DNA from: an uncultured Pseudomonadota bacterium
Lineage (GTDB): Bacteria; Oederibacteriota; Muellerivitia; Muellerivitales; Muellerivitaceae
Length of the DNA: 64,000 bases
Direction of reading: 5' to 3'
Assembly: GCA_963836235.1 (NCBI GenBank)
Contig: CAWIIP010000004.1
Span: 1-64,000 of the forward strand
A program made the translations under genes and the position numbers. Positions 5,506 to 60,983 of this stretch are shown here, piece by piece; positions within the stretch are counted from its first letter, which is position 1, and the number at the start of each line of letters is the position of its first letter. Below the pieces are notes generated by a model that ran no database searches, was not told the DNA's origin, and was given only the letters and a program-made list of their open reading frames with translations.

Positions 5506-8500
5506 ATGGATATTCTTCAAAACTTCTATGACCCCAAAATGATTTTGTCTTTCTTCAAAAGTTTTAGGTTAAGAGTTTCATTTTTAAGTCTTTTTCCCCT
5601 TTTTGTTTTAACGCCAGGCCTTGTTTGGGCCCAAAGTCCCACCGTTCAAATTATAGGTGAATCCACAACCAATCCTGTACCAGGGACCACTATGTACGTG
5701 ACGGTTACGGTATGTGACGCATTTACTTACAACAGTAATCCGGATACCCGTCCCAAACTAATGGTCGCCATTATTTCAGGATCGGGACAAACCACTCTCA
5801 ATCCAAGCTGCTCCACTGCGGGTCAATATTTGGTGGTCGATAGTAATATCTCGGGGAATATCGCGACGGGTCCAGGGATGTATGACCAGACCAGCGGAAC
5901 GCAAGGCGTCGGTGGACCGCCGGTCTATCCGAACATTAATGTGGTGGCAAACGCTTCTTGCGCGGCAAACGCTGTCACAGCTATTTGGCCAATCTACATT
6001 GATGGGAGTTTTTTAGCGGCTGGTAACTATAGTTTTGTCGTCGTCGCGGCTGAGGACTACATCACTTGTAGTACTAGTCCCTATTCATCGGCAAGTTTTA
6101 ATTTCACGGTTCCGTTCCCCCCGCCCAATATCACCCTTTCGAAAATCGCCGACGGAAGTACTGCCAACGCCAATGACTTGGTACTTTTCCGGATCGATTA
6201 TACTTACGTGAATACCGGGGCCGTGACGATTACTGACAACATTCCCGCCAATGTGACGCTTGTGAGCGGTGGGGGAGCCATTAGCCCTGGAGGAACTTTA
6301 AACGGTTCCACGGTTACATGGGTCTTGCCCGCTTCTTCCCCCACCGTCACCGGAACGGTTTGGTTTCTGACTCGCGTCAATAGTGGTGTTACCTCAGGAA
6401 CGGTCATTACCAATACGGCCTCGGCCGCCTCCGCCAGCGTGGGAACCGTCACCTCCAATCAGGCCCAAGTCGATATTGGTTCGGGTGGCTTTACCCTTTT
6501 GAAAAGTGAGTCTGCAACATCACTTGCCAGCGGCAATACGATAACTTATACCTTGAATTACGAAGTCAGCGGCATGAGTTTGCAGGTTTATGATTCTTAC
6601 GACAATGTCAGCAGTGGAGCCGCTGCCGCCCTTGGTTGTTCGAATGCTTGGGGATTCGACAGTACCGACTATTGTTATGCCAATGTGGGTGGGATGGGGG
6701 GCTTTACCATGGAAACGGATGCCTCAGGAAACCACTATCTTCAAGGATGCGCATATAGCAGCTGCAATTCCAGCGTGACTAATGGCAATTTCCCAACCTT
6801 GCTTCGAAGTGGTCCTCCAGTCAGCCTATGCAATAATTTTATGGTGGAAGGAGATATGGAAATTCCCGTCGGTTCAGCTACCGGGGGCGACGCCACCATG
6901 GTCATCGCGGATAATACTGCCGTGGGCGGGGTGGATGATGCCTATATGATCGGTATTTCCCTAGACTGTGGGCCAGGAAATTTTTTCATCCAAAAAAACA
7001 ACCAGAGTGGCGGCGGAACCGTCACATGGCCTGCAACTGAATGTGACGCCGCAATTGGGACCACGATTACGGCTGGCGTTTGGTACACGGTGAAAGTGTT
7101 GGCGACTTATTCGGCCGGGACGCTGACTTTTCAAGCGAAAGTCTGGCCCAGGGGTTCCGCCGAACCCACGACTTGGAGCATTAATTACGCTGATGCGGCT
7201 CCTTTGCCATGCACACCTAACTCTGGCGGAACATACCAAATAGGCTGGCAGGCGGATGGAACAGCCTCAACGGATTATTTTTCTAATCTGAAATTGTACA
7301 CTCCCGATCCCGTGGTGAACCCCCGCTTGTGGGACACAATCCCGACCGGTGAAACTTATGTCACATCAAATCCGGCTTATACAAACAAAACGGGGAACTT
7401 GCTCGAATGGGATCTTGGCGGCGCGCATCCTGTGACTACTTATGACTTGACGGGAGCCATTACTTGGTCCGCAACCGTATCCTGCGGAAATCCGGTGAAT
7501 GTCGCCGCTATTATGGGGGATGGACCGGCTTCCCAAGTGGTTTCCAACTCGGTTACCCTAGCTGTTTCCGGGTGTTCTACAAATACTCCAACCAATACAG
7601 CCACAAACACCCCTACGAAAACTCCAACTTTAACACCAACCAATACCCCGACTTTTACACCGACATTTACCCCCACCAATACCGATACGATGACGCCCAC
7701 TAGCACCATTACCAATACCCCTACTTCGACGCCTACTTTTACAAATACCAATACTCCGACCGACACCGCCACACCCACATCTACCAGTACTCCTACAAAT
7801 ACCAATACGATGACGCCCACCAGTACAGTTACCGATAGCCCTACCCTGACGCCTACTTTTACCATTACCAATACTCCAACCGACACTGCCACGCCCACAC
7901 CCACTAGTACGCCTACGAATACCGATACGATGACTCCCACCAGCACGGTTACCGATACCCCCACCCTAACGCCCACTTTTACTATTACCAACACTCCGAC
8001 TAACACTGCCACACCTACCCCTACCAATACGCCTACGAATACCGCGACAGTCACGCCAACTTTTACACCTACCAATACTCCAACCCAAACCCCGACTTCC
8101 ACCTCCACGAATACCGCCACTAATAGCCCTACCACCACACCCACATTTACCGCTACGACTACACCAACTCCTTTTGTGGCGGTTAATATCGGCAAGACCG
8201 TTTCGGACACCAGTCCTCTTGCAAATGAGACTTTGACTTATGGCATAAATGTCAGCATTCCAGATAGTCCGGCTTCGGGAGTGACTATTTCCGACACGAT
8301 TCCGGCGGAGCTTCAATATATCGGAGCGAGTCCCATTTCCAATCCCCCTGGTCCGGGAAGCTTCACGACATTCGGACTTCCAACACCTGGCCCCACGCCG
8401 GGAATGGGAACACTTTTAGTTTGGACTTTTCCTGGACCCATTCCGCAGGGAAATTACACCCTGAATTACACCGCCAGCGTCCCTAACTTTGTCCCCGCCG

Positions 8501-9492
8501 GAACGGTGTATTTAAACCAGGCTGCTTTAACTTATCCCCAAATAGCAACGCCCCAAATTGCTTCAGCCGCCTCCACGGTGGTGGGGAATTACACTGTTAA
8601 GATCAATATCTACAACGAAGCGGGTGAAGTTGTTAAGACAATACTCGTCCAACGTTATTCTCAGCCGGTTGTCAACGTAACCCTTGAAAAAAGCAATACC
8701 TTTCTATCCATCAACGACACCATTAGCATTCTTTACCAGGGAACTGTCATCGGGACTTGGAATGGTACCAACAACGGCGGGCAGGAAGTAACCAACGGGG
8801 ATTATTACATTAAAATCGACAACATCGATAATTTTGGGGTTGTTACTTCCGTGACGCAAATGGCCGTGGTGGCCCGCCATTTGGCCAACATTGACGTGAC
8901 CATTTATAACGGGGCGGGTGAAGCCATCCGCCACTTAGATCAGTTCACCTCAGATGCGGTTACGCTTGAAACCAACGTCAATCTTTCTAGAGGCCTTATT
9001 TCTCCCAGTTACCAGGGAGGGGTTAATTCCACTGTGACGATCAGCCTTTCCGATGGAACAAGTCTGGTGTGGGATGGGAAAAGTGATAACGGACAAATCG
9101 TAACCAATGGCAAGTATTTTATTATGGTGACTTCCAATGATGGCCAGGGTGGTGATTCGGCGGTAACCAAGGAAGTTACCGTTTTTCATAAGGGATTGAA
9201 TATCGCGCCAGGTGGGGTGGTTGTTTATCCTAATCCTGAAAGTGACCGGGTTGATGGAAGCCAGGTCAACTTCGCCACCAATTCCACGACTCCATTGACC
9301 TTGAAGGTGAACATTTACACGGTCGCTGGGGAACTAGTGCAACGAGTGGAGGGGCTACCTGGAACCGGCCAACTCACTTGGAATTTCTCCAGCCTAGGCT
9401 TGGCTAGCGGTCTTTACCTTGCGGATATCGAGATTTATGATCCGACCGGGGCCATGCAACGCCAGACTTCGAAGATTGTCATCGTCCGTTAA
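5506..9492 (+). CDS. Large secreted protein: DUF11-like domains, Thr/Pro linker, tandem FlgD-Ig-like domains and C-terminal sorting-like domain
   Basis: Signal peptide; DUF11-like segments ([23 protein letters not shown]); TPT repeats at about 7580-8170; [26 protein letters not shown]; terminal YPNP...IYTVAGELV...ASGLY...KIVIVR. Confidence 0.8.
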
Positions 9493-11294: not shown

Positions 11295-13286
11295 ATGAAC
11301 GATCAAAAAATAAATACAATTGTTCAACGCTTAAACCGGGTACAAAAGGCCTGGTGGATGGCCTTTGCCTTTTTTATCGGGTTTGCAGGTTATCCTTCCG
11401 CGGTTAATTCGCAAACTTGCACTCCGGCTTCCGCCAAAATTTGCGTTGCTGCGGACGATGATTCCACCATTTATGTTGGTGGGACGTTAATTGGACAAAT
11501 TGGCTATTGTAATTGGGATGGAACTGGGTCCTGTCCTCCGGGTTGCCTATCGGTTCCCACGGCTCTTCTCACCGGAGCCCAAGTTTGTTTAGCGATTGAA
11601 ACCCAAAACACCGCTCCTCTCATTAATTACAGTTCTTGGGATTTGGACATCACCTGCGCCGGTGGAAATCATTCAGAAATAACCAGCGACAACGGTGGCG
11701 GAGGATTGAGTCTTTACTATACGCCAAACGGCAATCCCTCAACTCCGCCGGCTGCAGATGGAAGCGGCAACCCATGGTTCTCGCCCAGTTACAATCCAAC
11801 CGTCAGTCCATTTACTTTCACGCCAACCGCCGTTCTTTGTGCTGAGACCTGGGGTCAACCCATTTATAACCCGGTCTCGGGCGCCCAACTGACCTTTCAG
11901 TCAAATAGCTGCAGTGCCGACACCGGTGGTTCTAATATCACGGGGGCTTTGTTCTGGCGTGAATGCGTGCCCATTCCAACTCCGGCGCCGACCCTGGGAC
12001 CCACAGCCTTCACCATTACCAAATCCATCATCGGAGGACCGGTCTATAATATTCCGGGCGCAAATGACGCTTCTGTGACTTATGCCATCACTTATTGCAA
12101 TACGGGCGCCGCCGTCACCACCCCGGTTACCATTCAAGACAACATTTCCGGCGGCGGCATGCAATATGGTTCGGGTTGCATCCCCCCACCAAGCCAACCC
12201 CAACCATACACCCCCTATTGCGGTGGAAATGGATCGGTGATTTATCCCTTAGGAATGCCCGGTAATTTTTGCCAATCAGTAACCTTTACCTATATCAACT
12301 ATTACTATCCCAATGATTTTTGCGCGACATTCGTCAATAACGCCACCATCGGAGATGGTGTCGTCAGTACCACCTCCAACTCGGTCACAGCCAATCTTGT
12401 TTGCGCAACCAATACCTTTACCTACACGCCGACCTATACCTACAGCCCAACTTTTACCAGGACCCCAACCCCTACCTGGAGCAATACTCCGCCACCATCT
12501 ACCCTGAGCCCCACGAATACCTATACCTGGACTCCCAGCTATACCCCAACTCCAACTTGGTCGAATACGGTTCTCCCGGGTACAAGTACCGCCACCAATA
12601 CCTATACTTTCACCCCCAGCTACACCCCAACCTCCACCGCGACGGCCATTGCCACTGCCACAGCGGGGGCGGCTTGCGGGGCAGGCGGATCAGGTGTTAC
12701 CACGCCAAATTTAACTTTGGGTGTCCGCCAGGGGACATGTGGCAACACCGAATTGGATTATTATTTTTATGTTGTTAACAACGGCTCAACGGCGGTTTCA
12801 GTTGCCGATATTTGCTTTGAGTTTTGGGCCTATGACACCGCTGCTACCAGTTGGGCAGTGCAAAGCGATTCAACCGGAAATATTTACAATACTCCCTACG
12901 TGGGGTCGCCCGGCGGATCGTTCACCCTGACCGCCACTAAGCTTGGCACCCCCTGTACGGTCATTAACGGAACCGTTACTACTTTTGCCAATTGGGAGTT
13001 TATGATCTGCGATTCGTCCGCAACAACATCGATCGCGCCGGGCAATTATTGGATTGATGGGGAAATAGGCCTTTATGACACTACCTATAGTTACACTCCC
13101 GGCGAGGCTTCTTGGTATAGCCCCCTACCGGGTGGAGTTTGTTCCGCGCCCCCGCTGGGCGGGGGGGCGTCGGATGTTGCCGCTTATTTCAACATTCCCC
13201 AGTACGCCTTGCTTTACAACGGCCAATTAGTTAATGAAGGGGGGGGACGGACGCTAACACAGGAGTTGTTCCATGCGCCGTTGTAA
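11295..13286 (+). CDS. N-terminal part of a giant secreted protein (Cys-rich domain, DUF11-like, CBM3-like); frameshifted at a G8 tract
   Basis: Signal peptide; [24 protein letters not shown] resembles CBM3; the reading frame shifts at G8 13239-13246. Confidence 0.75.
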
Positions 13287-16200
13287 ATACATGTACTCCC
13301 ACCTCGACTCCCACGTCTACCATTACTGAATCCCCAACCCCAACTTATACCAATACCAGAACCTATACCCCCACGAGTACTTTTACCAATACCGCCTCTT
13401 TCACGATTACCAATACCTTCTCGCCCACCTTTACCTACACCTTTACCCCCAGCTTTACTCCAACGCCTACCTATACCAATACCGCCACACCCACGATCAC
13501 CAATACCTTTACTTTAACTAATACCTTTTCTCCCACTGCCACTTATTCCAATACTTTCTCTTATACCCCGACGCCCACTTACACCAATACCTATTCCCAA
13601 ACTCCCACCGCTACCTGGACCAACACTACTACGTGGACGCCGACTAGTACTTATGCGACCAGTACCGCGACAAGTACCACCACAAAAACAACGACGAATA
13701 CGCCGACCAATACCGCGACCAATACAACGACGAACACGACCACAAACACAACAACGAACACGACCACTCCGACGACTACAAATACTCCGACCAAGACAAC
13801 GACGAACACACCCACGAATACGACGACCAACACTCCAACACCGACAACGACGAATACCCCGACCAATACCACCACTAACACGCCAACCCCAACGACGACA
13901 AATACGCCCACCAATACAACCACCAATACTCCAACGAACACGACGACCAATACTCCGACGAATACGACCACAAACACACCGACGAAGACAACGACCAACA
14001 CTCCGACGCCAACCACGACGAATACTCCCACGAATACGACCACCAATACTCCGACACCCACGATGACGAATACTCCTACTAATACGACCACGAATACTCC
14101 GACGAACACGACGACAAATACTCCAACGAATACGACCACAAACACACCGACGAAGACAACGACCAATACCCCAACTAATACGACGACCAACACTCCAACG
14201 CCGACAACGACGAATACTCCCACGAATACGACCACCAATACCCCGACACCCACGACAACTAATACTCCAACGAATACGACTACCAACACCCCCACCCCGA
14301 CAACCACCAATACGCCGACGAACACCACCACGAACACGCCTACCAATACGACGACCAACACTCCGACGCCGACAACGACGAATACTCCCACGAATACGAC
14401 CACAAACACACCGACGAAGACAACGACTAATACCCCAACCAATACGACTACGAATACGCCGACACCCACGACGACTAATACTCCTACCAATACGACGACC
14501 AACACTCCGACCCCGACTACGACGAATACGGCCACCAATACCACGACACCCACGACAACTAATACTCCAACGAATACGACTACCAACACCCCCACCCCTA
14601 CCACTTCTAACAGCCCGACGAATACGACAACCAACACACCAACTAACACAACAACGAATACCCCGACTAACACGACTACAAACACGCCTACCCCGACGAC
14701 AACCAATACGCCGACGAATACCACCACGAACACGCCTACCAATACGACGACCAACACTCCGACCCCCACTACCACGAATACGACCACCAATACTCCGACG
14801 AAGACAACGACCAATACCCCCACCAATACGACCACGAATACTCCGACGAACACAACGACGAATACCCCAACGAACACGACTACAAACACACCTACCCCGA
14901 CGACAACCAATACGCCGACGAATACCACCACCAACACGCCTACTAATACGATGACCAACACTCCAACGCCGACAACGACGAATACTCCGACGAATACGAC
15001 TACCAACACTCCAACGCCGACAACGACGAATACTCCCACGAATACGACCACCAATACCCCGACACCCACGACGACGAATACTCCTACCAATACGACCACG
15101 AATACGCCGACGCCCACGACGACCAATACTCCGACGAATACCACTACCAACACCCCGACCCCAACCACTTCTAATAGCCCGACGAATACCGCAACCAACA
15201 CGGCGACGAATACCCCGACCAATACCACCACCAACACCCCGACCAATACGACCACGAATACCCCGACGAACACGACCACGAACACGCCAACCTCAACCAC
15301 GTCCAATACGCCGACGAATACAACGACGAATACGCCCACCAACACAACTACGAATACGCCGACCCCAACCACATCCAACACACCGACGAACACCACCACG
15401 AACACGCCAACCCCGACTCAGACGAATACGCCAACTAATACAACCACCTTGACTCCTACTAGTACCCCGACGAACACGGCGACGAACACGCCGACGAGCA
15501 CAACTTCCAACACACCGACCAATACAGCGACGGCCACGGCGACGGGAACGCCGACGAACACGACGACGAATACTCCCACCCCAACCACGTCCAATACACC
15601 GACGAATACAACGACGAATACCCCGACCAGCACCACCACGAATACGCCGACTAATACGACCACGAATACGCCGACGAATACGACTACGAACACCCCAATC
15701 AACACCCCCACCAACACGGCGACGAATACCCCGACCAATACCACCACCGACACGCCGACCAATACGACCACCAATACCCCGACGAACACGACCACGAACA
15801 CGCCGACGAGCACAACTTCCAACACACCGACCAATACAGCGACGGCCACGGCGACGGGAACGCCGACGAACACGACGACGAATACTCCCACCCCAACCAC
15901 GTCCAATACACCGACCGACACGGCTACTCCGACCCAAACGAATACGCCAACGAACACGGCTACCCTGACGCCTACGGGCACCCCGACGAATACGACTACG
16001 AACACCCCAATCAACACCCCCACCAACACGGCGACGAATACCCCGACCAATACCACCACCGACACGCCGACCAATACGACCACCAATACCCCGACGAACA
16101 CGACCACGAACACGCCAACCCCGACTCAGACGAATACGCCAACTAATACAACCACCTTGACTCCTACTAGTACCCCGACGAACACGGCGACGAACACGCC

Positions 16201-19200
16201 GACGAGCACAACTTCCAACACACCGACCAATACAGCGACGGCCACGGCGACGGGAACGCCGACGAACACGACGACGAATACTCCCACCCCAACCACGTCC
16301 AATACACCGACCGACACGGCTACTCCGACCCAAACGAATACGCCAACGAACACGGCTACCCTGACGCCTACGGGCACCCCGACGAACACAGCCACGGATA
16401 CCGCGACCGCGACCACCACTAATACGGCGACCAATACCTCGATAGATACGGCGACCAATACCCCCACCGATACGCCTACGGGTACCCCGACGAACACGGC
16501 GACGAACACGCCGACGAGCACAACTTCCAACACACCGACCAATACAGCGACGGCCACGGCGACGGGAACGCCGACGAACACGACGACGAATACTCCCACC
16601 CCAACCACGTCCAATACACCGACCGACACGGCTACTCCGACCCAAACGAATACGCCAACGAACACGGCTACCCTGACGCCTACGGGCACCCCGACGAACA
16701 CAGCCACGGATACCGCGACCGCGACCACCACTAATACGGCGACCAATACCTCGATAGATACGGCGACCAATACCCCCACCGATACGCCTACGGGTACCCC
16801 GACGAACACGGCGACGAACACGCCGACGAGCACAACTTCCAACACACCGACCAATACAGCGACGGCCACGGCGACGGGAACGCCGACGAACACGACGACG
16901 AATACTCCCACCCCAACCACGTCCAATACACCGACCGACACGGCTACTCCGACCCAAACGAATACGCCAACGAACACGGCTACCCTGACGCCTACGGGCA
17001 CCCCGACGAACACAGCCACGGATACCGCGACCGCGACCACCACTAATACGGCGACCAATACCTCGATAGATACGGCGACCAATACCCCCACCGATACGCC
17101 TACGGGTACCCCGACGAACACGGCGACGAACACGCCGACGAGCACAACTTCCAACACACCGACCAATACAGCGACGGCCACGGCGACGGGAACGCCGACG
17201 AACACGACGACGAATACTCCCACCCCAACCACGTCCAATACACCGACCGACACGGCTACTCCGACCCAAACGAATACGCCAACGAACACGGCTACCCTGA
17301 CGCCTACGGGCACCCCGACGAACACAGCCACGGATACCGCGACCGCGACCACCACTAATACGGCGACCAATACCTCGATAGATACGGCGACCAATACCCC
17401 CACCGATACGCCTACGGGTACCCCGACGAACACGGCGACGAACACGCCGACGAGCACAACTTCCAACACACCGACCAATACAGCGACGGCCACGGCGACG
17501 GGAACGCCGACGAACACGACGACGAATACTCCCACCCCAACCACGTCCAATACACCGACCGACACGGCTACTCCGACCCAAACGAATACGCCAACGAACA
17601 CGGCTACCCTGACGCCTACGGGCACCCCGACGAACACAGCCACGGATACCGCAACCGCGACCACCACTAATACGGCGACCAATACGGCGACGGACACGGC
17701 CACGGGAACAGTGACGAATACCGCCACGGATACCGCCACCTCCACAGTTACCGATACACCGACCGACACCTCAACCAGTACCGTAACGAATACGGCCACT
17801 TCATCGGCAACCGCTACATCCACCAGTACAATCACCAATACGGCGACCCCGACGGCCACGAGCACACCTACTAGTACGCCGACAGATACCGCGACCGCGA
17901 CCGCCACCGGAACAGCCACCGATTCGCCTACTTCCACCACAACGGCCACTTCTACAAGTTCGCCTACCGACACACCCACGGACACATCCACTGGAACGCC
18001 GACCAATACGCCGACGGCCACTTCGACTTCTACGCCGACGGCCACGGCCACCGATACGGTGACCTCCACCTCCACCGGTACCCCGACGAACACGTCGACT
18101 AATACGGCAACTCCAACTCAAACGAACACTCCGACGAACACGGCCACCTCCACCACCACCAATACACCTACTCCCACCGCCACCAACACACCAACTTCCA
18201 CAAGCACCCAAACGCCAACCAATACGGTTACGGCTACTTCCACCTCCACGCCGTCAAATACCATGACTCCCACGAAAACGACGACTAATACACCCACCGC
18301 GACGGCTAGCAACACGCCGACCCATACCGAAACCTTTACCCTTACCGGTACGCCTACCAGGACTCCTACCTCCACGGCCACTTCTACTTCTACTGCGACA
18401 TCCACCAATAGCCCGACCTTTACCTTTACCGCCACCCCCAGTCGGACCGCCACTAATAGCCCGACCTTCACCTTTACGAACACGGTCACCCCCTCGCCCA
18501 CTTTCACGATGACCTTCACGCCGACTCCGACGCCTTTCCTGTCTTTGTCTAAGTCCTCCCAAAAGACCGCCCAACCCATGGAAAATGTCACTTATAGCCT
18601 GACCTATTCCAACGTGAATTCCTCCGGGGTTTCCAACGTGGTGGTCACCGATTCTTTGCCTGCCACGGTGGCGGCAAATTACGTGGCGGGTTCGGCTTCC
18701 AATGGAGGAGTTTTCAATTCCGTGACCAACACGCTGACTTGGACGATTCCATATGTCCCGGGTGAGACGACCGTCCAATTGACCTATCAATTGCAAATGG
18801 CCATGCTGGCCGCTGAATACAATCCAGTGGTAAACAACGCCCAGCTGACCTACCCCGGTGGGGTGACCGCGGTGGCTTCCAATTCGGTGAGCATTATCGG
18901 GAACTATATTGTCAGTCTTTCCATCTATAACAGCGCGGGAGAGCTTCTCAAGACCATCGCCACCTTCGAAACCAACGTCCCCATTTCGGGCTTTACCGTG
19001 ACCGGGGGAGTGATCACCACGAACTCGGGCGTCGCCCAGTTCTATTACAACGGGATTCTGATCGGAAGCTGGGACGCCACGAATATCTCGGGCCAGAAAG
19101 TGACTAACGGAGACTACCTGGTCAAAATCAACAGCGTTGACCCCCTGGGCGAGGTCACGACCGTCACCCATACCGTGACGGTGGATATCAGCAGCAGCAC

Positions 19201-19843
19201 CCTTCAACTGGCGGTGTACAACGAAGCCGGGGAAGTGGTGAAAACCTTTACGCAGCAACAATTGGCTACCCTGCTGACGGGTGGTTCCATCCTGCCCTCG
19301 GATTATAACGTCACCCAAGCGAAGCTCTCGAGCCAGACCATCGACCCGACTTATGGAGCCCCCACCAGCGCGGATAACCTGCTGACCATCACACTGGGTT
19401 CGGGCGACAGCTTCACTTGGAACGGGAGGGGCGACAATGGGGCCATCCTGACCCCGGGTATTTATTTCATCGAATTCGAGTCCCAGATTCCCGGCCAGGC
19501 GCCCCAAGAGATCACCATGACCATCCGGGTTATGGCCAACAATTCCAATAATGTCGTGGGAATCACGATGGGTCCCAATCCGATCCGTTTGGACCAAACG
19601 ACCCAGGCTAAATTTTTCATCAACAATCCAAACCTGCAATTTGATACAGTCCAGGTCCGGCTCTATACCCTCGCGGGCGAGTTGATGAATACCCTTTTGA
19701 GCCAGCCGGGAGACCCCTCAGAAGTGGTTTGGGATTTGAGCGCAGGCGGAGTCGCCAGCGGCGCCTATTTAGCGGTGGTGGAATTGAAATCCAACGGCGG
19801 CCTCGTGGGACGGCAGATCCTTCAAGTCGTAGTTATCCACTAA
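13247..19843 (+). CDS. C-terminal continuation of the giant protein: very long Thr-rich stalk, DUF11-like, FlgD-Ig-like domains and C-terminal sorting-like domain
   Basis: Frame open from 13247 ([19 protein letters not shown]...) through ORF 14063-19843; the C-terminal region is paralogous to that of 5506-9492. Confidence 0.8.
16171..17685 (+). repeat. Near-perfect tandem repeat, 312-bp (104-aa) unit, about 4.9 copies
   Basis: The marker GATAGAT recurs at 16441, 16753, 17065 and 17377 (period 312). Confidence 0.9.
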
Positions 19844-51412: not shown

Positions 51413-54178
51413 ATGATCCTCCCTTATAAGACAATTTATATGGCGGTCTCAGCGATCTTGGTTTTATTTCTCCATGACCAGTCTTTTCTCCGGAAGGTCC
51501 CTCAGAACTCGGCCCTTTTACGAACCAGTAAGGCGGGTTACGGCCAGATCCCCCTCGCCTTTGAGGCCAACCAGGGCCAAACCGATCCTTCCGTTAGGTT
51601 CCTTGCCCTTGGAAATGGTTACAGCTTGTTCCTCACTCCCACCCAGGCGGTTTGGGCCCTGCGGGACCGCCCCCGTCGGACGAGGTCCCGTTCCGCTTCC
51701 CGGACTTCTCCCGAAAAAACAGACTATCTTTGGATGAGTCTCAAGGGGGCTGACCCCAGGTGCCGGGCCGAAGGTTTGGGAGAATTGCCGGGGAAGAGTA
51801 ATTACTTGGTGGGCCAGGACCCTTCCCGGTACAAGACCAATACCCCCCAATTTGCGAAGGTCAAATTCACCGGTGTCTATCCCCACATCGACCTTTTCTA
51901 TTACGGTTCCACCGGGGGAAAACTTGAGTACGATTTCGTCCTCCAACCCCACGCCCGCCCTGAGGACATCCGTCTCCAGTTCCGCGGCGCCAAGAAGTTG
52001 TGGTTGAGGGATGATGGCAGCTTGGAAGTGGCGATGGGCCTCAAAAAAATGTCGTTCCAACTTCCGGCGGTCTATCAGAGTGGCACCCAAGGCAGGGAAA
52101 CCTTGAAGGGGCGGTTCGTGCTGCGGTCGGGGAATGAGGTGGGGTTCGAAGTGGCGGGTTACGACCCCTCAAGGCCCCTGGTCATCGACCCAACCTTTAC
52201 CCTGGTTTATTCCACTTATATCGGTTCCACCGCCGCTTACTTTCATAACGAGCTCGCCGACTTTTGCGTGGACCCTTCCGGGTTCACTTATTTGGTCGAA
52301 CCGGGTCCTGGCGGTTTTCCTTATCCCACCACCTCGGGGGCTTTTCAAACGACGGACAAGGGCACGATCAACGCCATCATCGTGAAATTGAACCAAGCCG
52401 GGTCGGCGTTGGTTTACGCGACCTACCTGGGGGGATCCGTGGAGGATCAGTGCTTTTCCATCGCCGCTGACGCCGGGGGGAACGCCTACCTGACCGGTTT
52501 CGCCGGCTCGTCCGATTTTCCGACAACGCCGGGGGCCTACCGGGCCGGCCCGCCTGTCGGCCCCGACGCCTTCGTTGCCAAGCTCAATCCCACCGGGACC
52601 GCGTTGGTCTATTCCACCTTGCTCGGCGGGTCAAGCCAGGACGTAGGGAGGAGCATCGTGGTGGACAGTGACGGGGACGCCTATGTGGGCGGGTACACCC
52701 AATCCACCGATTTTCCCACCACCTCCGGAGCCTTTATGACCACGAAACCCAGCGGGAGCCAATCCCTTTTCGTCACGAAAGTAAATCCCACGGGGACCGC
52801 CTTGGTCTATTCCACCTACTTGGGTGGATCGGGGAACGACCAGTTGGACGCCCTCGCAATCGATGGGTCGGGCGACGCATATGTGACAGGCATCACTTCT
52901 TCCACGGATTTTCCCACGACATCGGGAGCCTACCGGACCACCGCCAGCGGCAGTTCGGATGCCTTCGTGACCAAGCTCAACCCCACGGGTACCGCTTTAG
53001 CCTATTCCACCTACTTGGGGGGCAGCCAGCAGGACGAAGGCCAAGCCATCGCAGTGGATGCCTCAGGTAGCGCCTATGTGACCGGTTATACGGCCTCCGC
53101 GGACTTTCCCACGACCCCGGGTGTTTTGGGCCTGAGCCTGACGGGGACTGAGAATTGTTTCGTGACGAAATTGAGTCCCGCGGGGAACAGCCTAGTCTTC
53201 TCCACTTATTTGGGGGGAAAAACGGTTGATCTGGGTTACGGCATCACCGTGGATGGGTCGGGCCAGGTCTATGTGGGGGGGCTCACGGGCTCGTCGGATT
53301 TCCCCACAACCCCAGGCGCGCTCAAAACGACCTTTATCAGCTCCACGACCTTTTTTTCGCTCCTGAACCCTACGGCCACTTCACTGCTCTATTCAACCTT
53401 TTGGGGAGGGTCCGGTGGCGAGGATGACGGGGCACGGATCGGATTGGATTCTTCCGGCGCCGTCTATCTGGGAGGGGGCACCTATACCAGCGATTACCCC
53501 ACGACTGCGGGGGCTTACGAAACAACTCATGCCGCCGATAGCGAGGACCTTTTCGTGGCCAAACTGGTGATGGGGATCACCAATTCCCCCACCGCGACCA
53601 ACAGCCCGTCACCCACACCAACCCTTTCCAGCACGGCTACTCCGACCTCGACCGGCAACGCCACCAACACCCCCACCTTCACTCTTACTTCTACCTTCAC
53701 CTCATCCATTACCGACACACCCACTCCGACCGGCAGCTGGACCTCAACTCCCACCGTGACCGAGACCTTTACCCCGACAGGGAGCTACACCTTGACCTTC
53801 ACCCAAACTCCCACGGCTACCTTGACCCCTACGCCGACCAATACACCGGCCCTCACTTTCACACCCACCGGCACGTCCACCCTGGGATCGTCTTCCTTTG
53901 GTTTCTGTCCCCCCTATCCCAACCCCTCGGATGGTTCGTCACCGGTTTCTTTTTGCGTCGATGTGCCCGAAGGGTCCTTGGTCGATCTGGGCATTTACAC
54001 CACGGCTTTCCGGAAGATCTACGGCCGCCACCCCACTCTTTCGGGCCAAAACTTCCTGAATTGGAACTTGAGGGATGATTGGGGGACTCCCGCAGCCAAC
54101 GGGGTTTATTACCTGAAAATTCAAGTTACGGGAATCCAACCCGTGACCAAGATCTTCAAAATACTGGTTATCCGTTAG
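51413..54178 (+). CDS. SBBP (beta-propeller) repeat protein with Thr/Pro linker and C-terminal sorting-like domain
   Basis: PLAFEANQGQ N-terminal domain; repeated LVYSTYLGGS..D....IAVD..G.AYVTG.T.S.DFPTT; PYPNP...ANGVY...KILVIR. Confidence 0.88.
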   Translation: MILPYKTIYMAVSAILVLFLHDQSFLRKVPQNSALLRTSKAGYGQIPLAFEANQGQTDPSVRFLALGNGYSLFLTPTQAVWALRDRPRRTRSRSASRTSPEKTDYLWMSLKGADPRCRAEGLGELPGKSNYLVGQDPSRYKTNTPQFAKVKFTGVYPHIDLFYYGSTGGKLEYDFVLQPHARPEDIRLQFRGAKKLWLRDDGSLEVAMGLKKMSFQLPAVYQSGTQGRETLKGRFVLRSGNEVGFEVAGYDPSRPLVIDPTFTLVYSTYIGSTAAYFHNELADFCVDPSGFTYLVEPGPGGFPYPTTSGAFQTTDKGTINAIIVKLNQAGSALVYATYLGGSVEDQCFSIAADAGGNAYLTGFAGSSDFPTTPGAYRAGPPVGPDAFVAKLNPTGTALVYSTLLGGSSQDVGRSIVVDSDGDAYVGGYTQSTDFPTTSGAFMTTKPSGSQSLFVTKVNPTGTALVYSTYLGGSGNDQLDALAIDGSGDAYVTGITSSTDFPTTSGAYRTTASGSSDAFVTKLNPTGTALAYSTYLGGSQQDEGQAIAVDASGSAYVTGYTASADFPTTPGVLGLSLTGTENCFVTKLSPAGNSLVFSTYLGGKTVDLGYGITVDGSGQVYVGGLTGSSDFPTTPGALKTTFISSTTFFSLLNPTATSLLYSTFWGGSGGEDDGARIGLDSSGAVYLGGGTYTSDYPTTAGAYETTHAADSEDLFVAKLVMGITNSPTATNSPSPTPTLSSTATPTSTGNATNTPTFTLTSTFTSSITDTPTPTGSWTSTPTVTETFTPTGSYTLTFTQTPTATLTPTPTNTPALTFTPTGTSTLGSSSFGFCPPYPNPSDGSSPVSFCVDVPEGSLVDLGIYTTAFRKIYGRHPTLSGQNFLNWNLRDDWGTPAANGVYYLKIQVTGIQPVTKIFKILVIR

Positions 54179-54186
54179 GAACATGA

Positions 54187-56835
54187 ATGAAAAAACATCC
54201 AAGATCATTTGAATTTTACCGGCTCTTTTCTGTCATTTTTTTAGTTGGCGGATTTGTGGTCGTAATTTTTGATCCGAACCTTCTCGCCGGTATTTTTCAT
54301 CGGGCCGCTGCCCTGAAATCGACTCGACAAGATTCTTCCGGGGAAATGAAATTTAAAAGATCCTACGGCCAACTCCCATTGATCTTCGAACCCAACGAAG
54401 GCCAAACCGATCCCCGGGTGAGCTATTTCTGCCGGGGCGCGGGATACAGCCTATTCTTGACCCCGAAAGAAGCGGTGCTCACCTTAAGACAACCCGAACC
54501 ACCATCCCGCCATCCGGGCCGCGAGAAGGGCCAGGCCTTGCCTCTCGAACCGTCCCGGGTCCGGGAGAGGGTGTTGCGCATCAAGTTAAAAGAGGCCCAA
54601 TCGCCTTCCTCGGTGGAGGGGATGGATAAATTGGAAGGTACCAGCAATTATTTCATCGGCAAGGACCCCCGAAAATGGCGCACAGGGATCCCCCAATTCG
54701 CCAGGGTGAAATTAAAGGATGTTTATCCCGGCATCGACATCGTTTATTACGGCAACGGGGGAAAATTGGAGTATGACTTCGTGGTAAAACCGGGGGCCGA
54801 TCCGAGGTCGATCCAGATGGCTTTTGAGGGCACCCAAGGGATGAAGTTGGTCGATGGCGATTGGGTTTTGAAAGCGGGGAAAGACCAACTGGTTTTTAAA
54901 GCGCCCGTGATCTATCAGCCGCAAGGGGGCTCGCGCAGAAGGGTGGAGGGACGGTATGTGCGGATGGGGCCTCATCAGCTGGGTTTCCAGGTGGATGGCT
55001 ATGACCCGACGCGAACGCTTGTCATCGATCCCGTATTAGATTATTCGACCTATTTGAGCGGGAGCGCCTCGAACCAGAGCTTCGGGATCGCGGTGAACTC
55101 CAGCGGAAATGCTTATGTGATCGGACAGGTTACTTCCATTACTTTCCCAACGACGGCAGGGGCCTTCCAGACCGCCCCCCCTGGCGGTACCTCGGACGCT
55201 TTTGTCTCGGAGCTGAACGCCGCCGGGACGGGGTTGGTCTATTCGACCTATTTGGGCGGGACGGGGATAGAGGGCGCCATGAAGATTGCGGTGGACGCCG
55301 CGGGAAATGCCTATGTGGTGGGAGTCACCAGTTCCACCGATTTTCCCATCACGCCCGGAGCCTTCCAAACGGCCTCCACGGGGGTTACCTATAACATTTA
55401 TTTGACCAAATTGAATCCCGCCGGGACCGCCCTCGTTTATTCCACGTACTTTGGCGGGAATGCCGACACGCAATGCGACGCCCTCGCAGTCGACAACACC
55501 GGGCAGGCTTATATCGGCGGCTTTTCCAGCGCCACCAATTTACCCACAACGGCCGGCGCCTATCAAAGCACGATGAAGGGAAGTACCAACGCCTATGTGG
55601 CAAAGTTCAACGCCCTCGGGACGGCTTTGGTGTACATGACTTATCTGGGAGGGACCAATTATGACGGTCTTTCTGGGATCGCGTTGGACCCTTCGGGGGA
55701 CGCTTATCTCTGCGGCGGGACCCGCTCCGTCGATTTCCCCACGACCGCCGGAGTTTTTAAATCGGCTTATGGCGGGGGAATCAATGATGGCTTTGTGGCC
55801 AAGTTGAATCCCACTGGTACTGCCTTGTTGTACTCTACTTACCTGGGTGGAAGCGGGAACGACAGCATCTCCGGTATCAAAATAGATTCTTCGGGAGACG
55901 CCTATATTGCCGGCGGCACCACTTCCGTGAATTTCCCCACCACCGCGGGCGCTTATCAAGGCGCGTTGGCGGGAAATACCAACGTCTTCATCACTGAATT
56001 AAACCCAACAGCCACTTCATTGATTTACTCCACCCTCCTGGGAGGCAGTAATAATGATGCGGCCTATGGAATGGATATGGATTCCTCCTATAGGGTCTAC
56101 GTGACGGGGCAGATCAATTCGGTGAATTTTCCAACCACCGCGGGGGCGTTCCAAACGGTTTTTGGGGGTTTCGACGATTCCTTTATCAGTGTCATGAACC
56201 CGACCGGCACGGCCTTGGTCTATTCCAGTTACCTCGGAGGGAGCAGTGAGGACGTGGGCTATGGCATTGCCTTGGACCCGGCCGGGAACGCTTATCTGGC
56301 AGGCTATACCTGGTCGACCGACTTTCCCACGACGGCGGGCGCTTACCAACCGGTGTACGGCGGCGGAAGTTCCAACGCCTTTGCCGCTAAATTCGACGTG
56401 ACGACCTTTAGCATCCCCGCCATCACCGCAACCCCGACCTCCACTCCGACGAGTAGTCCAACTTCAACGCCCACACCCTTGGTTACCAGCACGCCCACTT
56501 CCACACCGACCTTTACGCCGACCGCCCTGATGACCAACACGCTCACACCCGGTTCAACTTCAGGCTGTGTGATCCATGTTTGGCCCAATCCTTATAGCTT
56601 GAAATACGCCCATGACCATGCCTTGAAGTTCAGCTGCCTGCCCGCGAACGCCGAGGTTTATATCTATACGGTATCGGGCGAGTTGGTGGCCCAGTTCGGC
56701 CCCTCCGGCGACCCCACCGAATGGAAAGATGGGAAAAATCTCAATGGGGCCAGTGTTTCCTCCGGCATTTATTATTACGCTATTCAGAATGGCCAAACCC
56801 TCTTGCAACGGGGTAAGTTTTTGATCACACCTTAA
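54187..56835 (+). CDS. SBBP repeat protein (paralog) with C-terminal sorting-like domain
   Basis: Same architecture as the previous gene; VWPNP...IYTVSGELV...SSGIYYY...GKFLI. Confidence 0.88.
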   Translation: MKKHPRSFEFYRLFSVIFLVGGFVVVIFDPNLLAGIFHRAAALKSTRQDSSGEMKFKRSYGQLPLIFEPNEGQTDPRVSYFCRGAGYSLFLTPKEAVLTLRQPEPPSRHPGREKGQALPLEPSRVRERVLRIKLKEAQSPSSVEGMDKLEGTSNYFIGKDPRKWRTGIPQFARVKLKDVYPGIDIVYYGNGGKLEYDFVVKPGADPRSIQMAFEGTQGMKLVDGDWVLKAGKDQLVFKAPVIYQPQGGSRRRVEGRYVRMGPHQLGFQVDGYDPTRTLVIDPVLDYSTYLSGSASNQSFGIAVNSSGNAYVIGQVTSITFPTTAGAFQTAPPGGTSDAFVSELNAAGTGLVYSTYLGGTGIEGAMKIAVDAAGNAYVVGVTSSTDFPITPGAFQTASTGVTYNIYLTKLNPAGTALVYSTYFGGNADTQCDALAVDNTGQAYIGGFSSATNLPTTAGAYQSTMKGSTNAYVAKFNALGTALVYMTYLGGTNYDGLSGIALDPSGDAYLCGGTRSVDFPTTAGVFKSAYGGGINDGFVAKLNPTGTALLYSTYLGGSGNDSISGIKIDSSGDAYIAGGTTSVNFPTTAGAYQGALAGNTNVFITELNPTATSLIYSTLLGGSNNDAAYGMDMDSSYRVYVTGQINSVNFPTTAGAFQTVFGGFDDSFISVMNPTGTALVYSSYLGGSSEDVGYGIALDPAGNAYLAGYTWSTDFPTTAGAYQPVYGGGSSNAFAAKFDVTTFSIPAITATPTSTPTSSPTSTPTPLVTSTPTSTPTFTPTALMTNTLTPGSTSGCVIHVWPNPYSLKYAHDHALKFSCLPANAEVYIYTVSGELVAQFGPSGDPTEWKDGKNLNGASVSSGIYYYAIQNGQTLLQRGKFLITP

Positions 56836-56839
56836 CGTG

Positions 56840-56919: not shown

Positions 56920-57201
56920 ATGATCCGAAGCTTTAAGGGTAAAGAAACCGAGCTTATCTTCAACCGGACTTTTTCCCATCGGCTGCCCCACGACATTCAA
57001 ACGGTGGCCTTTCGGAAACTCCGAATGATAAGCCGGGCGGTATCCTTAAACGATTTGAGGGTTCCCCCAGCAAACCATTTGGAAGCCCTGCACGGGAACC
57101 GTAAGGGCCAACACAGCATTCGGATTAATAATCAATGGCGTGTTTGTTTTGAATGGCGCGCGGGGGACGCACATAACGTTGAGATCGTGGATTACCACTA
57201 G
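56920..57201 (+). CDS. higB: HigB toxin (RelE/ParE superfamily, plasmid killer type)
   Basis: MIRSFK.KETE, DLRVPPANHLEALHG.RKGQHSIRINNQWRVCFEW and VEIVDYH. Confidence 0.95.
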   Translation: MIRSFKGKETELIFNRTFSHRLPHDIQTVAFRKLRMISRAVSLNDLRVPPANHLEALHGNRKGQHSIRINNQWRVCFEWRAGDAHNVEIVDYH

Positions 57202-57209
57202 GAGGAAAA

Positions 57210-57512
57210 ATGAAGACAGCTAAAATTCCGCCGCTACATCCAGGCGAAGTTCTTCAAGAGGAGTTTTTAGCTCCCATGAAGATCAGCCAAAATAAGCTGG
57301 GTCAGGACCTGGGGGTCCCTCCCCGCCGCATCAATGAAATCATCCAGGGGAAAAGGGGCATCACAGCCGATACCGCCTTGCGCTTGGCCAGGTATTTCAA
57401 CATGTCCCCCCAATTTTGGCTTGGCTTGCAAATGGATTTTGAGTTGGACCAGGAAGCAGACCATCTTGCATCCCGCCTCAAAAAGGAAGTCCACGTCTAC
57501 CAGGCTGTTTAA
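57210..57512 (+). CDS. higA: HigA antitoxin (HTH Xre)
   Basis: PLHPGEVLQEEFL, RINEII.GKRGITADTALRLARYF and FWLGLQ. Confidence 0.95.
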   Translation: MKTAKIPPLHPGEVLQEEFLAPMKISQNKLGQDLGVPPRRINEIIQGKRGITADTALRLARYFNMSPQFWLGLQMDFELDQEADHLASRLKKEVHVYQAV

Positions 57513-58742: not shown

Positions 58743-58772
58743 ATTCCAATTCGCCCTTTTGATATAAAAAAT

Positions 58773-58802
58773 CTGTCCACTACGGGGACCCGTCGTGGAC
58801 AA
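58773..58802. repeat. 30-bp palindrome, copy 3
   Basis: CTGTCCACTACGGG-GA-CCCGTCGTGGACAA. Confidence 0.95.
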
Positions 58803-58849
58803 CAAAGAATTGCCTGCACATGCCTGTCGCAAAAAGGATAGTGTGCAAC

Positions 58850-59120
58850 CGATGCTCTTTTTGATGCTTCGGCACCTTTTGTGAGTGAAGTAGGTAGTGA
58901 TTTGGCCGTTGGCGCATTGGAAGCAGGGGGAGCAGCATTGGCCTCAGTTTCGGGGCCTTTGGCTCCGCTGGTGGAAGAGGGAACACAAGCGCTTGCACCC
59001 CTTGCCTATGTTGCCGGTTCGACCGCGGCATCGGCAGGTTGGAAATATATTCAACAACAAGCCGCTCCCGTAATAAACAATGCGATAAGCACCATTAGTG
59101 GGTGGTTTTCAGGACCGTGA
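58850..59120 (+). pseudogene. 5'-truncated gene fragment (Ala/Gly-rich hydrophobic C-terminus, polymorphic-toxin-like)
   Basis: The frame is open up to the repeat boundary (DALFDASAPFVSEVG...ISGWFSGP*); no SD for the internal GTG. Confidence 0.5.
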
Positions 59121-59147
59121 TTTTTCTTTTTCAATTTTAAAGATTAA

Positions 59148-59633
59148 GTGAAGTGGTTTGAAATGAAAAACACAAAAGTTTATGGATCTAAATTCACTGT
59201 TTTGCTCATGGGACTTTTTTTAGGGATGAGCCTTTTTGTTCTTGTGAAGAAATTGGGGGAACCAGATGCCGAAATCACGAAACCAATCTTAATAGTTGTC
59301 TTTGGTCTGTTTTTATTTTTGGTGGCTTTTAATCGAGCATTAACCCCTCGATGGACCTATGACGAGAGTGGAGTCACGATGAAAAACTCATTTAAGCCAA
59401 AAGATGAAAATTTTTGGCCTTGGAGTGAAGTTGTTGGCATTTATAGACGCGCTTATTGGTCGTGGAATTACTACATCGATTTTAAACGCGGGGGTGTCAT
59501 GGTTAGTTTTCTCTGGACTAGCAATCATTTAAGGATTTTAGTGGATGCGGTACATTTTGCACAAAAAAATAACCCAAATGTGGAAATTACACCTTCTGTT
59601 TTGGGAAAAGTTAAAAAATATTTTAACCGATAG
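59148..59633 (+). CDS. Hypothetical 2-TM membrane protein (immunity-like)
   Basis: Two TM segments followed by a PH-like soluble part; AT-rich; lies inside spacer 1. Confidence 0.7.
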   Translation: MKWFEMKNTKVYGSKFTVLLMGLFLGMSLFVLVKKLGEPDAEITKPILIVVFGLFLFLVAFNRALTPRWTYDESGVTMKNSFKPKDENFWPWSEVVGIYRRAYWSWNYYIDFKRGGVMVSFLWTSNHLRILVDAVHFAQKNNPNVEITPSVLGKVKKYFNR

Positions 59634-59689
59634 ATATTTTTGAAAAGTAACTTTTGGGCAACAGTTAGTAGATTGAAAGGCGTTTGTTA

Positions 59690-59820
59690 ATGAATGGCGA
59701 AGTTTTTAAAAATTTAAAAAGTGCCAAGAGATTATGGGGCTTATTGCTGTTTCTCACTTTGGGAAACAGCTCAATATCTTTCGCCCAGACAGCCACGCCT
59801 ACCCCCATGCCCACGCCGAC
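59690..59820 (+). pseudogene. 3'-truncated gene: signal peptide + TPTP linker cut by the repeat
   Basis: MNGEVFKNLKSAKRLWGLLLFLTLGNSSISFAQTATPTPMPTPT runs directly into repeat 2. Confidence 0.6.
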
Positions 59821-59864
59821 CCTGCACATGCCTGTCGCAAAAAGGATAGTGTGCAACTAACTAA

Positions 59865-60635
59865 TCACTTTTCCGAAGATTTTAATTCATTCAATATTTC
59901 TTTTGATTTCTTTTCCAACTCTTGTCGATTCCCCCTAAGACTCAAGTTCGTTTTATGATATTGTTCAACAGTTTGCTTATATGAAATTCTCAATTTTAAT
60001 CTCTTCTCACGGTTCAAAAAATATTGATCGGCGGTACTTTTCGAACCAAACGTTTTAATTTTGCGATCTTTATACTCTCCATATATTTTGGAGCCCGTTA
60101 TTTTTTTGAATATTTGATCCGTTAATTCGTTTGCGTTTTTCAGACCACCTTTATGCCAAGTCAATTTAGAATAAGTCCCATTAATCATCGCCTCTTCCCT
60201 AATCCATTGACAAAGATCATCAGTTTTACCATCGCCCAATTCGTTTCCTAATTGATCCGCTTTTTCAATTCCCTCTTTTTGTTTTGACTTCACATTCATT
60301 TGATCTATCGGCATACTTTCGGGATTATTGTGTGCACCCATCGAAGTTAGATCGTTGGATAAATCTTTAAGTTTTTTAATTAAAGCCATTTGATCATCAG
60401 TTAAGTTCAACGATGACACCGATATTAAATCTTCATCCACTTTTGGTAAAAAACCGGATGCACTCCAAATCTTTATTGCTCGAATTTTTTCGGCAGACAC
60501 TGGCAAAACCTCAGAAGTAATGGCGGGTGTTTGAGCAATAACCCATCTAATAGGCGCAGCCCAAAGAACCAATATTTCAAAAGCAAAAATCATTTTCCGC
60601 CATTTTTGAAATTTCATCCCTGTTTTGAAATCCAT
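59865..60635 (-). CDS. Hypothetical secreted protein inside spacer 2
   Basis: 256-aa ORF with signal-like N-terminus and GGGGGA SD; stop codon 7 bp from repeat 2. Confidence 0.7.
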   Translation of the reverse strand: MDFKTGMKFQKWRKMIFAFEILVLWAAPIRWVIAQTPAITSEVLPVSAEKIRAIKIWSASGFLPKVDEDLISVSSLNLTDDQMALIKKLKDLSNDLTSMGAHNNPESMPIDQMNVKSKQKEGIEKADQLGNELGDGKTDDLCQWIREEAMINGTYSKLTWHKGGLKNANELTDQIFKKITGSKIYGEYKDRKIKTFGSKSTADQYFLNREKRLKLRISYKQTVEQYHKTNLSLRGNRQELEKKSKEILNELKSSEK

Positions 60636-60953
60636 TACATCCCCCTGATGTGGTTTGCCCTAAGCGTTGTCGAAGGGTTGGTGTTGTTTAAACGAAGGTG
60701 AGCGAGGTAAAAGCGAAAACTTTTTCAGTTGGACTATATCAAAACGATAAATATTTACTATGTTTAAAGGTAAATGGCCTGCACATGCCTGTCGCAAAAA
60801 GGATAGTGTGCAACGGTTCAAGCTCTTATTCAAAATAATGATGGGAATGGGCGAAAGTGGGGTTTCGGGCCTATTTTAGAAGCCTGAAGAAATCATTTAA
60901 AAGAAAAGCAGTTATGCCATTTTTTGGAAATAAAAGATAATGGCAATATGTAG

Positions 60954-60983
60954 TTGTCCATAGTGGGGACCCTGATTGGACAA
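60954..60983. repeat. 30-bp palindrome, copy 4 (degenerate)
   Basis: TTGTCCATAGTGGG-GA-CCCTGATTGGACAA. Confidence 0.8.

Follow-up and report, generated by a model that had tools for sequence, protein, structure and literature searches.

A 37-nt repeat, R, divides part of the 64,000-nt stretch of uncultured Pseudomonadota DNA analysed here (the window) into long segments, and is very probably the repeat of a stand-alone cas1-cas2 adaptation module that works without spacer-length control and captures kilobase DNA. The module exists, R is invariant, it is joined on both sides to arbitrary DNA positions, and the segments between its copies are kilobases long. From the sequences we infer that Cas1-Cas2 makes these junctions, and the pair is linked to the window solely by the identical repeat in one other genome. 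The assemblies of three genomes point to a gene-capture system of CRISPR descent for which there is no match among known families, and we found no prior description of it in the open-licence PubMed Central and bioRxiv literature, which was searched by exact-word matching and holds few subscription papers.

The repeat array of the window and its first segment

The window carries three identical copies of R (Table 1), a number of matches reached in 0 of 100 shuffles, and the first segment that they enclose, spacer 1, is poorer in G+C than the window as a whole (0.42 vs 0.51). Copy R1 is leaderless and interrupts a cassette 10 nt past the cassette start; a homolog of this cassette in CAVYRH, another genome that carries R, runs on without R (L023:4800). 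A Pfam scan of 49 window ORF references (12 + 37) turned up no cas gene, recombinase/integrase or transposase, Rfam gave no match for R or P and no CRISPR family, a promoter/terminator scan stayed at chance level, and family searches with the 256-aa protein of segment 2 gave weak noise only.

Table 1. Features of the R array in the window, with positions counted from the first nucleotide of the window.
Feature	Position	Strand	Description
Palindrome P + 10-nt cassette stub	58772..58812	+	left breakpoint of array
Repeat R copy 1 (R1)	58813..58849	+	37 nt, hairpin-forming, CRISPR-type; without leader
Captured segment 1 (spacer 1)	58850..59820	+	971 nt, GC 0.42
ORF1	58851..59120	+	89 open codons, Ala+Gly 34%
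885-nt core shared with CAVYRH	58893..59777	+	100% identical to whole R-bounded segment L014:16464-17348 of CAVYRH010000003.1
Complete gene, 161 aa (156 aa from ATG 59163)	59148..59633	+	2 TM helices + bacterial PH-like domain
5' fragment of secreted TPTP-linker gene	59690..59820	+	cut by repeat 2
Repeat R copy 2 (R2)	59821..59857	+
Captured segment 2	59858..60777	-	920 nt, GC 0.35
Complete 256-aa gene in segment 2	59865-60635	-	without family match
Repeat R copy 3 (R3)	60778..60814	+
Right side of array	60815..60983	+	138 nt after R3, then degenerate P at 60953-60983

The cassettes around the array are bounded by a degenerate 31-nt palindrome, P, which occurs in the window at 56839, 57527, 58772 and 60953 and about 30 times in the CAVYRH loci. 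In loci L024-L027, L023, L001, L002, L013 and L017 there is about one P per gene, in an orientation fixed to the genes, and the cassettes hold whole genes, among them HigBA (window 56920-57512), an NHL gene and the cas1-cas2-R module described below. By its layout the P array resembles that of an integron whose site is very short, and no integrase was found. An IS110-family element begins right at P twice (L023:6646 and L001:16623), as if P were the target of that element.

Spacer 1 had been described in the initial annotation as a slice that holds an intact gene between two truncated neighbours. The intact gene is as described, the 161-aa ORF being whole and having two hydrophobic helices. 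The downstream gene is also cut as proposed: from ATG 59690 it encodes a signal-peptide-like start and meets no stop ahead of R2, R completes its codon 44, and the frame reads through R2 to a stop at 59858-59860. For the upstream neighbour, ORF1, the frame is indeed open from the R1 edge and the neighbour is cut in the CAVYRH copy, but GTG 58881 is a possible start, giving 79 aa without an obvious Shine-Dalgarno, and the 10 extra open codons 5' of it are no more than chance. A search among 1.84 billion representatives for a longer homolog of ORF1 returned only ORF1 itself and two repetitive low-complexity matches. With this alternative start and without a longer homolog, the left-hand cut is unproven from the window; ORF1 is probably the C-terminal tip of a longer, possibly RHS-like protein, or alternatively the 79-aa gene. 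Its composition is Ala/Gly-rich as stated, but none of its helices rises above the hydrophobicity threshold (maximum 1.22).

The 161-aa protein matches bPH_7 at E=0.0018, below the cut-off, and scores 0.95 to PH/DUF304-named clusters; among 32 candidates of 88-282 aa its only homolog was itself. Searches with spacer 1 DNA gave no match in plasmids or phages, and an intact donor locus was found neither there nor among the protein representatives. A donor related to this genome, proposed from the style of the TPTP linker, is plausible, since TPTP-linker secreted proteins also occur in CAVYRH segments and one genome with R is labelled candidate division FCPU426. The window itself encodes similar TPTP proteins at 5506-9492 and 51413-56835, as well as a very long secreted protein of Thr/Pro/Asn repeats with DUF11 and FlgD-Ig at its end (11295-19843), which is apparently split into frames near 13.3 kb.

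The cas1-cas2 module and the captured segments

We searched one genome per species with an 18-nt part of R and obtained 29 loci, 24 of which carry R; L009, L010, L022, L028 and L029 were dropped as chance 18-mer matches (14-18 mismatches over 37 nt). Outside the window there are 28 copies, 26 on three contigs of the metagenome-assembled genome CAVYRH, titled uncultured proteobacterium, and 2 in CAVYSE, of candidate division FCPU426, which makes three carriers of R in all among the genomes tested. Compared with the R of the window, 24 of the 28 are identical, two differ by one base and two by five. The four variants show one hairpin pair with a two-sided change and one pair broken once, too few to weigh. 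The five-base variant stands twice in one array (L008:11080 and L008:18922), which suggests a second related module or a copied mutated repeat.

Four R copies of CAVYRH share their upstream DNA, which consists of cas1, cas2 and a short leader, with the cas2 stop at a fixed distance of about 20 nt ahead of R; cas1 is intact at two of these places, frameshifted at one and 5'-truncated at one. The Cas1 proteins (336-346 aa) match PF01867 at E=3e-68 and TIGR00287 above its cut-off. Ranked by score against PDB sequences, Cas1 matches CRISPR Cas1 structures (E=2e-33) better than it does the 431-aa entry 6opm (E=2e-24), which we take to be a casposase. Of 3,860 candidate relatives, 610 match at E<=1e-30, and the best 120 share 57-100% identity, several of them being named from Patescibacteria; phage and plasmid records hold no close relative, the best being at about 33%. 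Residues E162, H222, D234 and E237 align with the acidic/His active-site positions of solved Cas1, whose roles are given in PMC4046053.

The ORF next to cas1 (111 aa) matches PADLOC Cas2b at E=1.9e-7 and Pfam Cas2 at E=0.018, below the cut-off. The source of a 56%-identical relative calls it Cas2, and the Atlas neighbours are also Cas2; on these matches the protein is a divergent Cas2. In the Cas2-like protein at L017:9624-9956 and its relatives P0126-P0134 the N-terminal strand is divergent, two cysteines are invariant and the C-terminus is extended, features that are a candidate site of the lost length control. Predicted models of this Cas2 were poor (pLDDT 37 and 46).

PADLOC detected no Cas effector (Cas3/Cascade, Cas9, Cas10, Cas12 or Cas13) in 206 of the 237 ORFs in the 10-kb flanks of R, the scan having taken ORFs of at least 90 aa and left out 31 of 70-89 aa. 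Its Cas-type matches were Cas1, Cas2, a Cas4-like nuclease inside a segment, and group II intron reverse transcriptases (RT-Cas1 profile); beside cas1-cas2 there is no dedicated Cas4. The two CAVYSE copies of R are single (L003:9982 and L012:2773-2809) and have no cas1 in their 10-kb flanks; one of them comes after a truncated type I methylase and a Y1 transposase gene.

All 23 R-bounded segments, counted between neighbouring R copies in the same direction and leaving out an inverted pair and a 281-kb gap, measure 213-12,145 nt (median 2,279), and none is 25-50 nt long. Some of the long ones hold IS elements, possibly later arrivals, and the 23 have no terminal inverted repeats (2-11 of 30 matches). 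Several arrays are without a leader, and there is no constant trailer. In CAVYRH, 18 of 21 segments are co-oriented with R, which suggests selection for expression of the segments. Other segments duplicate DNA present elsewhere in the same genome, and such self-derived segments argue against an active DNA-cutting effector.

The junctions disregard genes. At 11 of them the donor is visible (one SE15 self-match row was left out), and by a by-eye count 8 lie inside reading frames, the cuts falling in cas1 (twice), an RHS core, a 245-aa membrane gene of which 133 codons are kept, IS3 genes, and both neighbours in spacer 1. The PAM-like or microhomology motif suspected at donor junctions is absent: these 11 share no PAM or flanking motif, and their microhomology is 0-2 nt. 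The two flanks of any one R are never contiguous in a donor, both R edges being joined anew; the simple insertion of R, as of a MITE, is therefore rejected. Open frames of at least 100 codons, some of them whole genes starting beside R, are found at 21 of 58 R junctions vs 6 of 65 P junctions (Fisher p=4e-4), the same measure giving 58% for random positions and 3.4% for shuffled flanks. R cuts genes far oftener than the cassette boundaries do and less often than random cuts. Of the six reading frames through R four are open, and a 478-aa ORF that spans R (L001:12113-13546) joins a GmrSD N-terminal fragment to a FecR-domain fragment, a case of domain shuffling through R.

The captured ends also have a composition of their own. 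Over positions 2-7 from the junction A+T reaches 72% (250/348) vs 54% further in (p=4e-12; 0 of 5000 permutations), a range that was picked after viewing the data, with 4 leader-side flanks left out of the junction statistics; at positions 8-14 it falls to 46%. The bias holds on both sides of R (126/162 and 124/186) and persists when only the 22 cuts that fall in long open frames are counted (90/132, p=5e-5); the ends of spacer 1 itself are without it (3/6 and 1/6). Cas1-Cas2 engages splayed 3' ends in known structures, and we infer that this symmetric taste for easily frayed ends of about 7 nt may be the trace of an integrase engaging two such ends.

Spacer 1 is itself present in a second genome. 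The CAVYRH copy is identical over 885 of 885 nt, lies inverted relative to R and is 43 nt shorter at each end, lacking what in the window is 58850-58892 and 59778-59820, so that both flanking ORFs are cut 43 nt deeper, the TPTP gene at 59777. These different ends uphold the earlier statement that capture, unlike that of integron cassettes, ignores gene boundaries. Equal trimming of 43 and 43 nt, noticed post hoc, would arise in about 0.3% of cases if each end were trimmed independently and uniformly without touching the gene, and the shorter copy may have been re-captured from a window-type array. No other DNA-level match of the window to the R loci of CAVYRH or CAVYSE was found beyond the core, R and P. 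Because the core is identical and nothing else in the window matches those loci, this looks like a recent transfer of spacer 1 between genomes, the loci compared being variable regions. Beside the CAVYRH copy lies the sole inverted pair of R copies seen, which point towards each other across 109 nt (L014:17349-17531).

Immunity genes and other readings of the array

Two ideas in the initial annotation concerned function: that spacer 1 holds a toxin/immunity pair, and that the array banks orphan immunity genes. On the first, ORF1 has a weak, full-length alignment with the Ala/Gly-rich tip of an RHS protein in CAVYRH (score 55), a score equalled in 4 of 500 shuffles and the best of four tips, the other three being equalled in 62-456 of 500. 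This likeness and the 2-TM, PH-like protein behind it weakly support such a pair; the spacer 1 proteins are without homologs. The predicted complex of ORF1 with the 161-aa protein scored 0.01, which we count neither for nor against. Judged by its sequence the 161-aa protein is a candidate immunity or resistance protein, and the chances that it is an orphan immunity gene behind an RHS tip are about even.

On the second, two of the 21 CAVYRH segments hold HMM-verified RHS cores, two further ones carry the same RHS-downstream membrane genes with different ends, and another two, including the spacer 1 copy, look like a tip plus a small gene, without family support. The remaining 15 have other cargo, of envelope, secreted, toxin-antitoxin, restriction-type, respiratory, cas and IS kinds: outer-membrane barrels, TPR/NHL genes, toxin-antitoxin pairs, methylases, an NO-reductase cluster, cas1 and IS fragments. 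Four segments are firmly tied to RHS loci, and immunity banking is thus a plausible use of the arrays, not their definition. We consider it unlikely that the array is such a bank run by a site-specific recombinase in the manner of the Bacteroidales rAID. A block of RHS tip, IS200 and small membrane genes was captured three times with different ends (L004:7538-10007, L001:8400-9981, and L008:19209 to L014:11656), the toxin part shrinking, and missing in one capture, while the small membrane genes were kept, much as a bank would have it. The common orientation of segments and the tip-like plus membrane-gene anatomy of spacer 1 point the same way. A bank of this kind does not account for junctions that cut genes or for the mostly unrelated cargo, and the 161-aa protein matches no immunity family. 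The recombinase analogy fell away, too: no tyrosine recombinase was found in the ORFs scanned in Pfam (49 window references and 109 of 237 locus ORFs), and the enzyme linked to R is Cas1-Cas2.

That the junctions are the work of another enzyme (a transposase of IS110, Y1 or DDE type, or whatever recombinase moves the P cassettes), with cas1-cas2 a passenger beside R, seems to us quite improbable. Genes of this sort are present in and near segments, IS110, IS200, IS3, DDE transposase and group II intron genes all occurring in R regions, and the window has R without cas1. The cas1-cas2-R module begins at P in three of its four copies, and another mobility system therefore acts there. Such an enzyme would have to explain why R keeps its position after cas2 and why on both of its sides new junctions lead to unrelated ends that share the A+T signature; R is never plainly inserted into a contiguous target, and the IS elements keep fixed ends of their own that do not coincide with R. 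A decayed ordinary CRISPR array, its long segments being rare insertions or deletion scars, is very unlikely. In its favour, the length of the repeat, the hairpin and the order cas1-cas2-leader match a normal adaptation locus, and isolated cas loci and over-long spacers are on record in general (PMC5294841, PMC4869251); yet not one of the 23 segments has normal spacer length, R is essentially undegenerated, and the 100%-identical shared segment indicates recent activity.

The least probable reading, to which we give hardly any credence, is an assembly or library artefact in which contigs were mis-joined at the 37-nt repeat or at an adapter. The contigs are metagenome-assembled, and CAVYRH010000003.1 has blemishes inside a 12-kb RHS segment, a long simple run and frameshifts at L013:5239-6423, that are probably assembly defects. 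A mis-join at R may reorder segments, but it cannot yield gene-cutting junctions with an end-composition bias. The natural variants of R mostly keep the hairpin, the site after cas2 is fixed, R bounds the same unique DNA in two genomes but at different ends, and 5 contigs carry the 161-aa protein.

A probable gene-capturing adaptation module among known systems

The preferred reading, a Cas1-Cas2 module that captures kilobase DNA, places the R loci next to CRISPR adaptation modules, with which they share the cas1-cas2-leader-repeat order, the 37-nt hairpin repeat, a repeat flanking each piece, and pieces cut irrespective of genes. As in a CRISPR-Cas locus, CAVYRH has a cas1 with intact active-site residues, an adjacent cas2 and, just behind the cas genes and leader, identical direct repeats whose 37 nt lie within the 23-50 nt expected of such a locus, whereas short uniform spacers are missing (0 of 23 segments under 200 nt). 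The segments are 0.2-12 kb long instead of tens of bases, contain whole genes and are in many cases self-derived, and the loci differ from such modules by having no nearby effector, dedicated Cas4 or visible PAM and by their leaderless arrays and dispersed repeats.

Integron arrays are likewise repeat-delimited arrays of adaptive genes. An integron cassette is a whole single gene with variable attC sites and is moved by IntI. It is the neighbouring P cassettes that resemble this, with about one whole gene per unit, including toxin-antitoxin pairs, whereas R segments disregard where genes start and end, R is short and does not vary, and the ORFs scanned include no IntI. IS91/ISCR, ISEcp1 and Helitrons mobilise gene fragments with arbitrary ends by one-ended capture. 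The arbitrary-ended fragments are common to both, but here both segment ends are arbitrary and joined to the same repeat, and no HUH or DDE transposase has a fixed place beside R.

Casposons, described in PMC4046053 as transposons of Cas1-solo group 2 with terminal inverted repeats, are alike in that a Cas1-family integrase inserts kilobase DNA with a direct repeat on both sides. The R segments differ in having neither terminal inverted repeats nor polB, in the arbitrary ends of their cargo and in the presence of Cas2, and R is an invariant 37-nt repeat as against the 1-27-nt target duplication given there for casposons. The 109 ORFs scanned in Pfam, among them the neighbours of each cas1, contain no family B polymerase gene. 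The hallmarks of rAID arrays, according to PMC12247911, are an upstream tyrosine recombinase and co-oriented, short, whole immunity genes. On that description the R arrays are alike in their mostly co-oriented low-GC cargo between conserved motifs, some of it immunity-like RHS cargo, and unlike in having no tyrosine recombinase, cut genes, multi-gene slices and mostly non-immunity cargo.

We propose that Cas1-Cas2 would bind both ends of a long linear DNA, favouring ends whose last 7 or so nucleotides are A+T-rich and fray. As when a normal spacer is acquired, one end would then be joined to each edge of R, and R would be duplicated to give R-segment-R. In vitro, Cas1-Cas2 commonly transfers one end only, and repair completes the reaction (PMC8390005). 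Given the missing leader and trailer, plain two-ended insertion would be insufficient without a further step, in which chromosome arms serve as the ends or an excised R circle serves as the target; such a step could produce leaderless arrays, single or inverted R copies and self-duplications. No effector would read the segments as guides; they would act as genes, and selection would keep the intact, useful ones. Spacer 1 would be one such capture in two genomes, probably kept for its intact membrane protein. We lean slightly towards the wider proposition that a widespread Cas1 clade, free of a length ruler and of an effector, is a gene-capture and genome-shuffling machine that moves pieces between species, rides P cassettes and fuses genes by read-through of R, with selection enriching its arrays in envelope genes and orphan immunity genes.

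The accepted picture of Cas1-Cas2 is that of a ruler of fixed length, by which tens of bases are stored. The module described here appears to store genes, that is, heritable acquired function, without an effector, terminal inverted repeats or att sites in the donor. It suggests a compact site-specific integrase for kilobase DNA whose donor ends are unconstrained in sequence. It would also account for cas1-cas2 pairs that are scored as array-less because array finders built for short spacers cannot see kilobase segments. The module bears directly on the origin of CRISPR from casposon-like integrases, a question that two small proteins and a 37-nt site make open to test, and, if the reading is true, would be a natural link between casposons and CRISPR.
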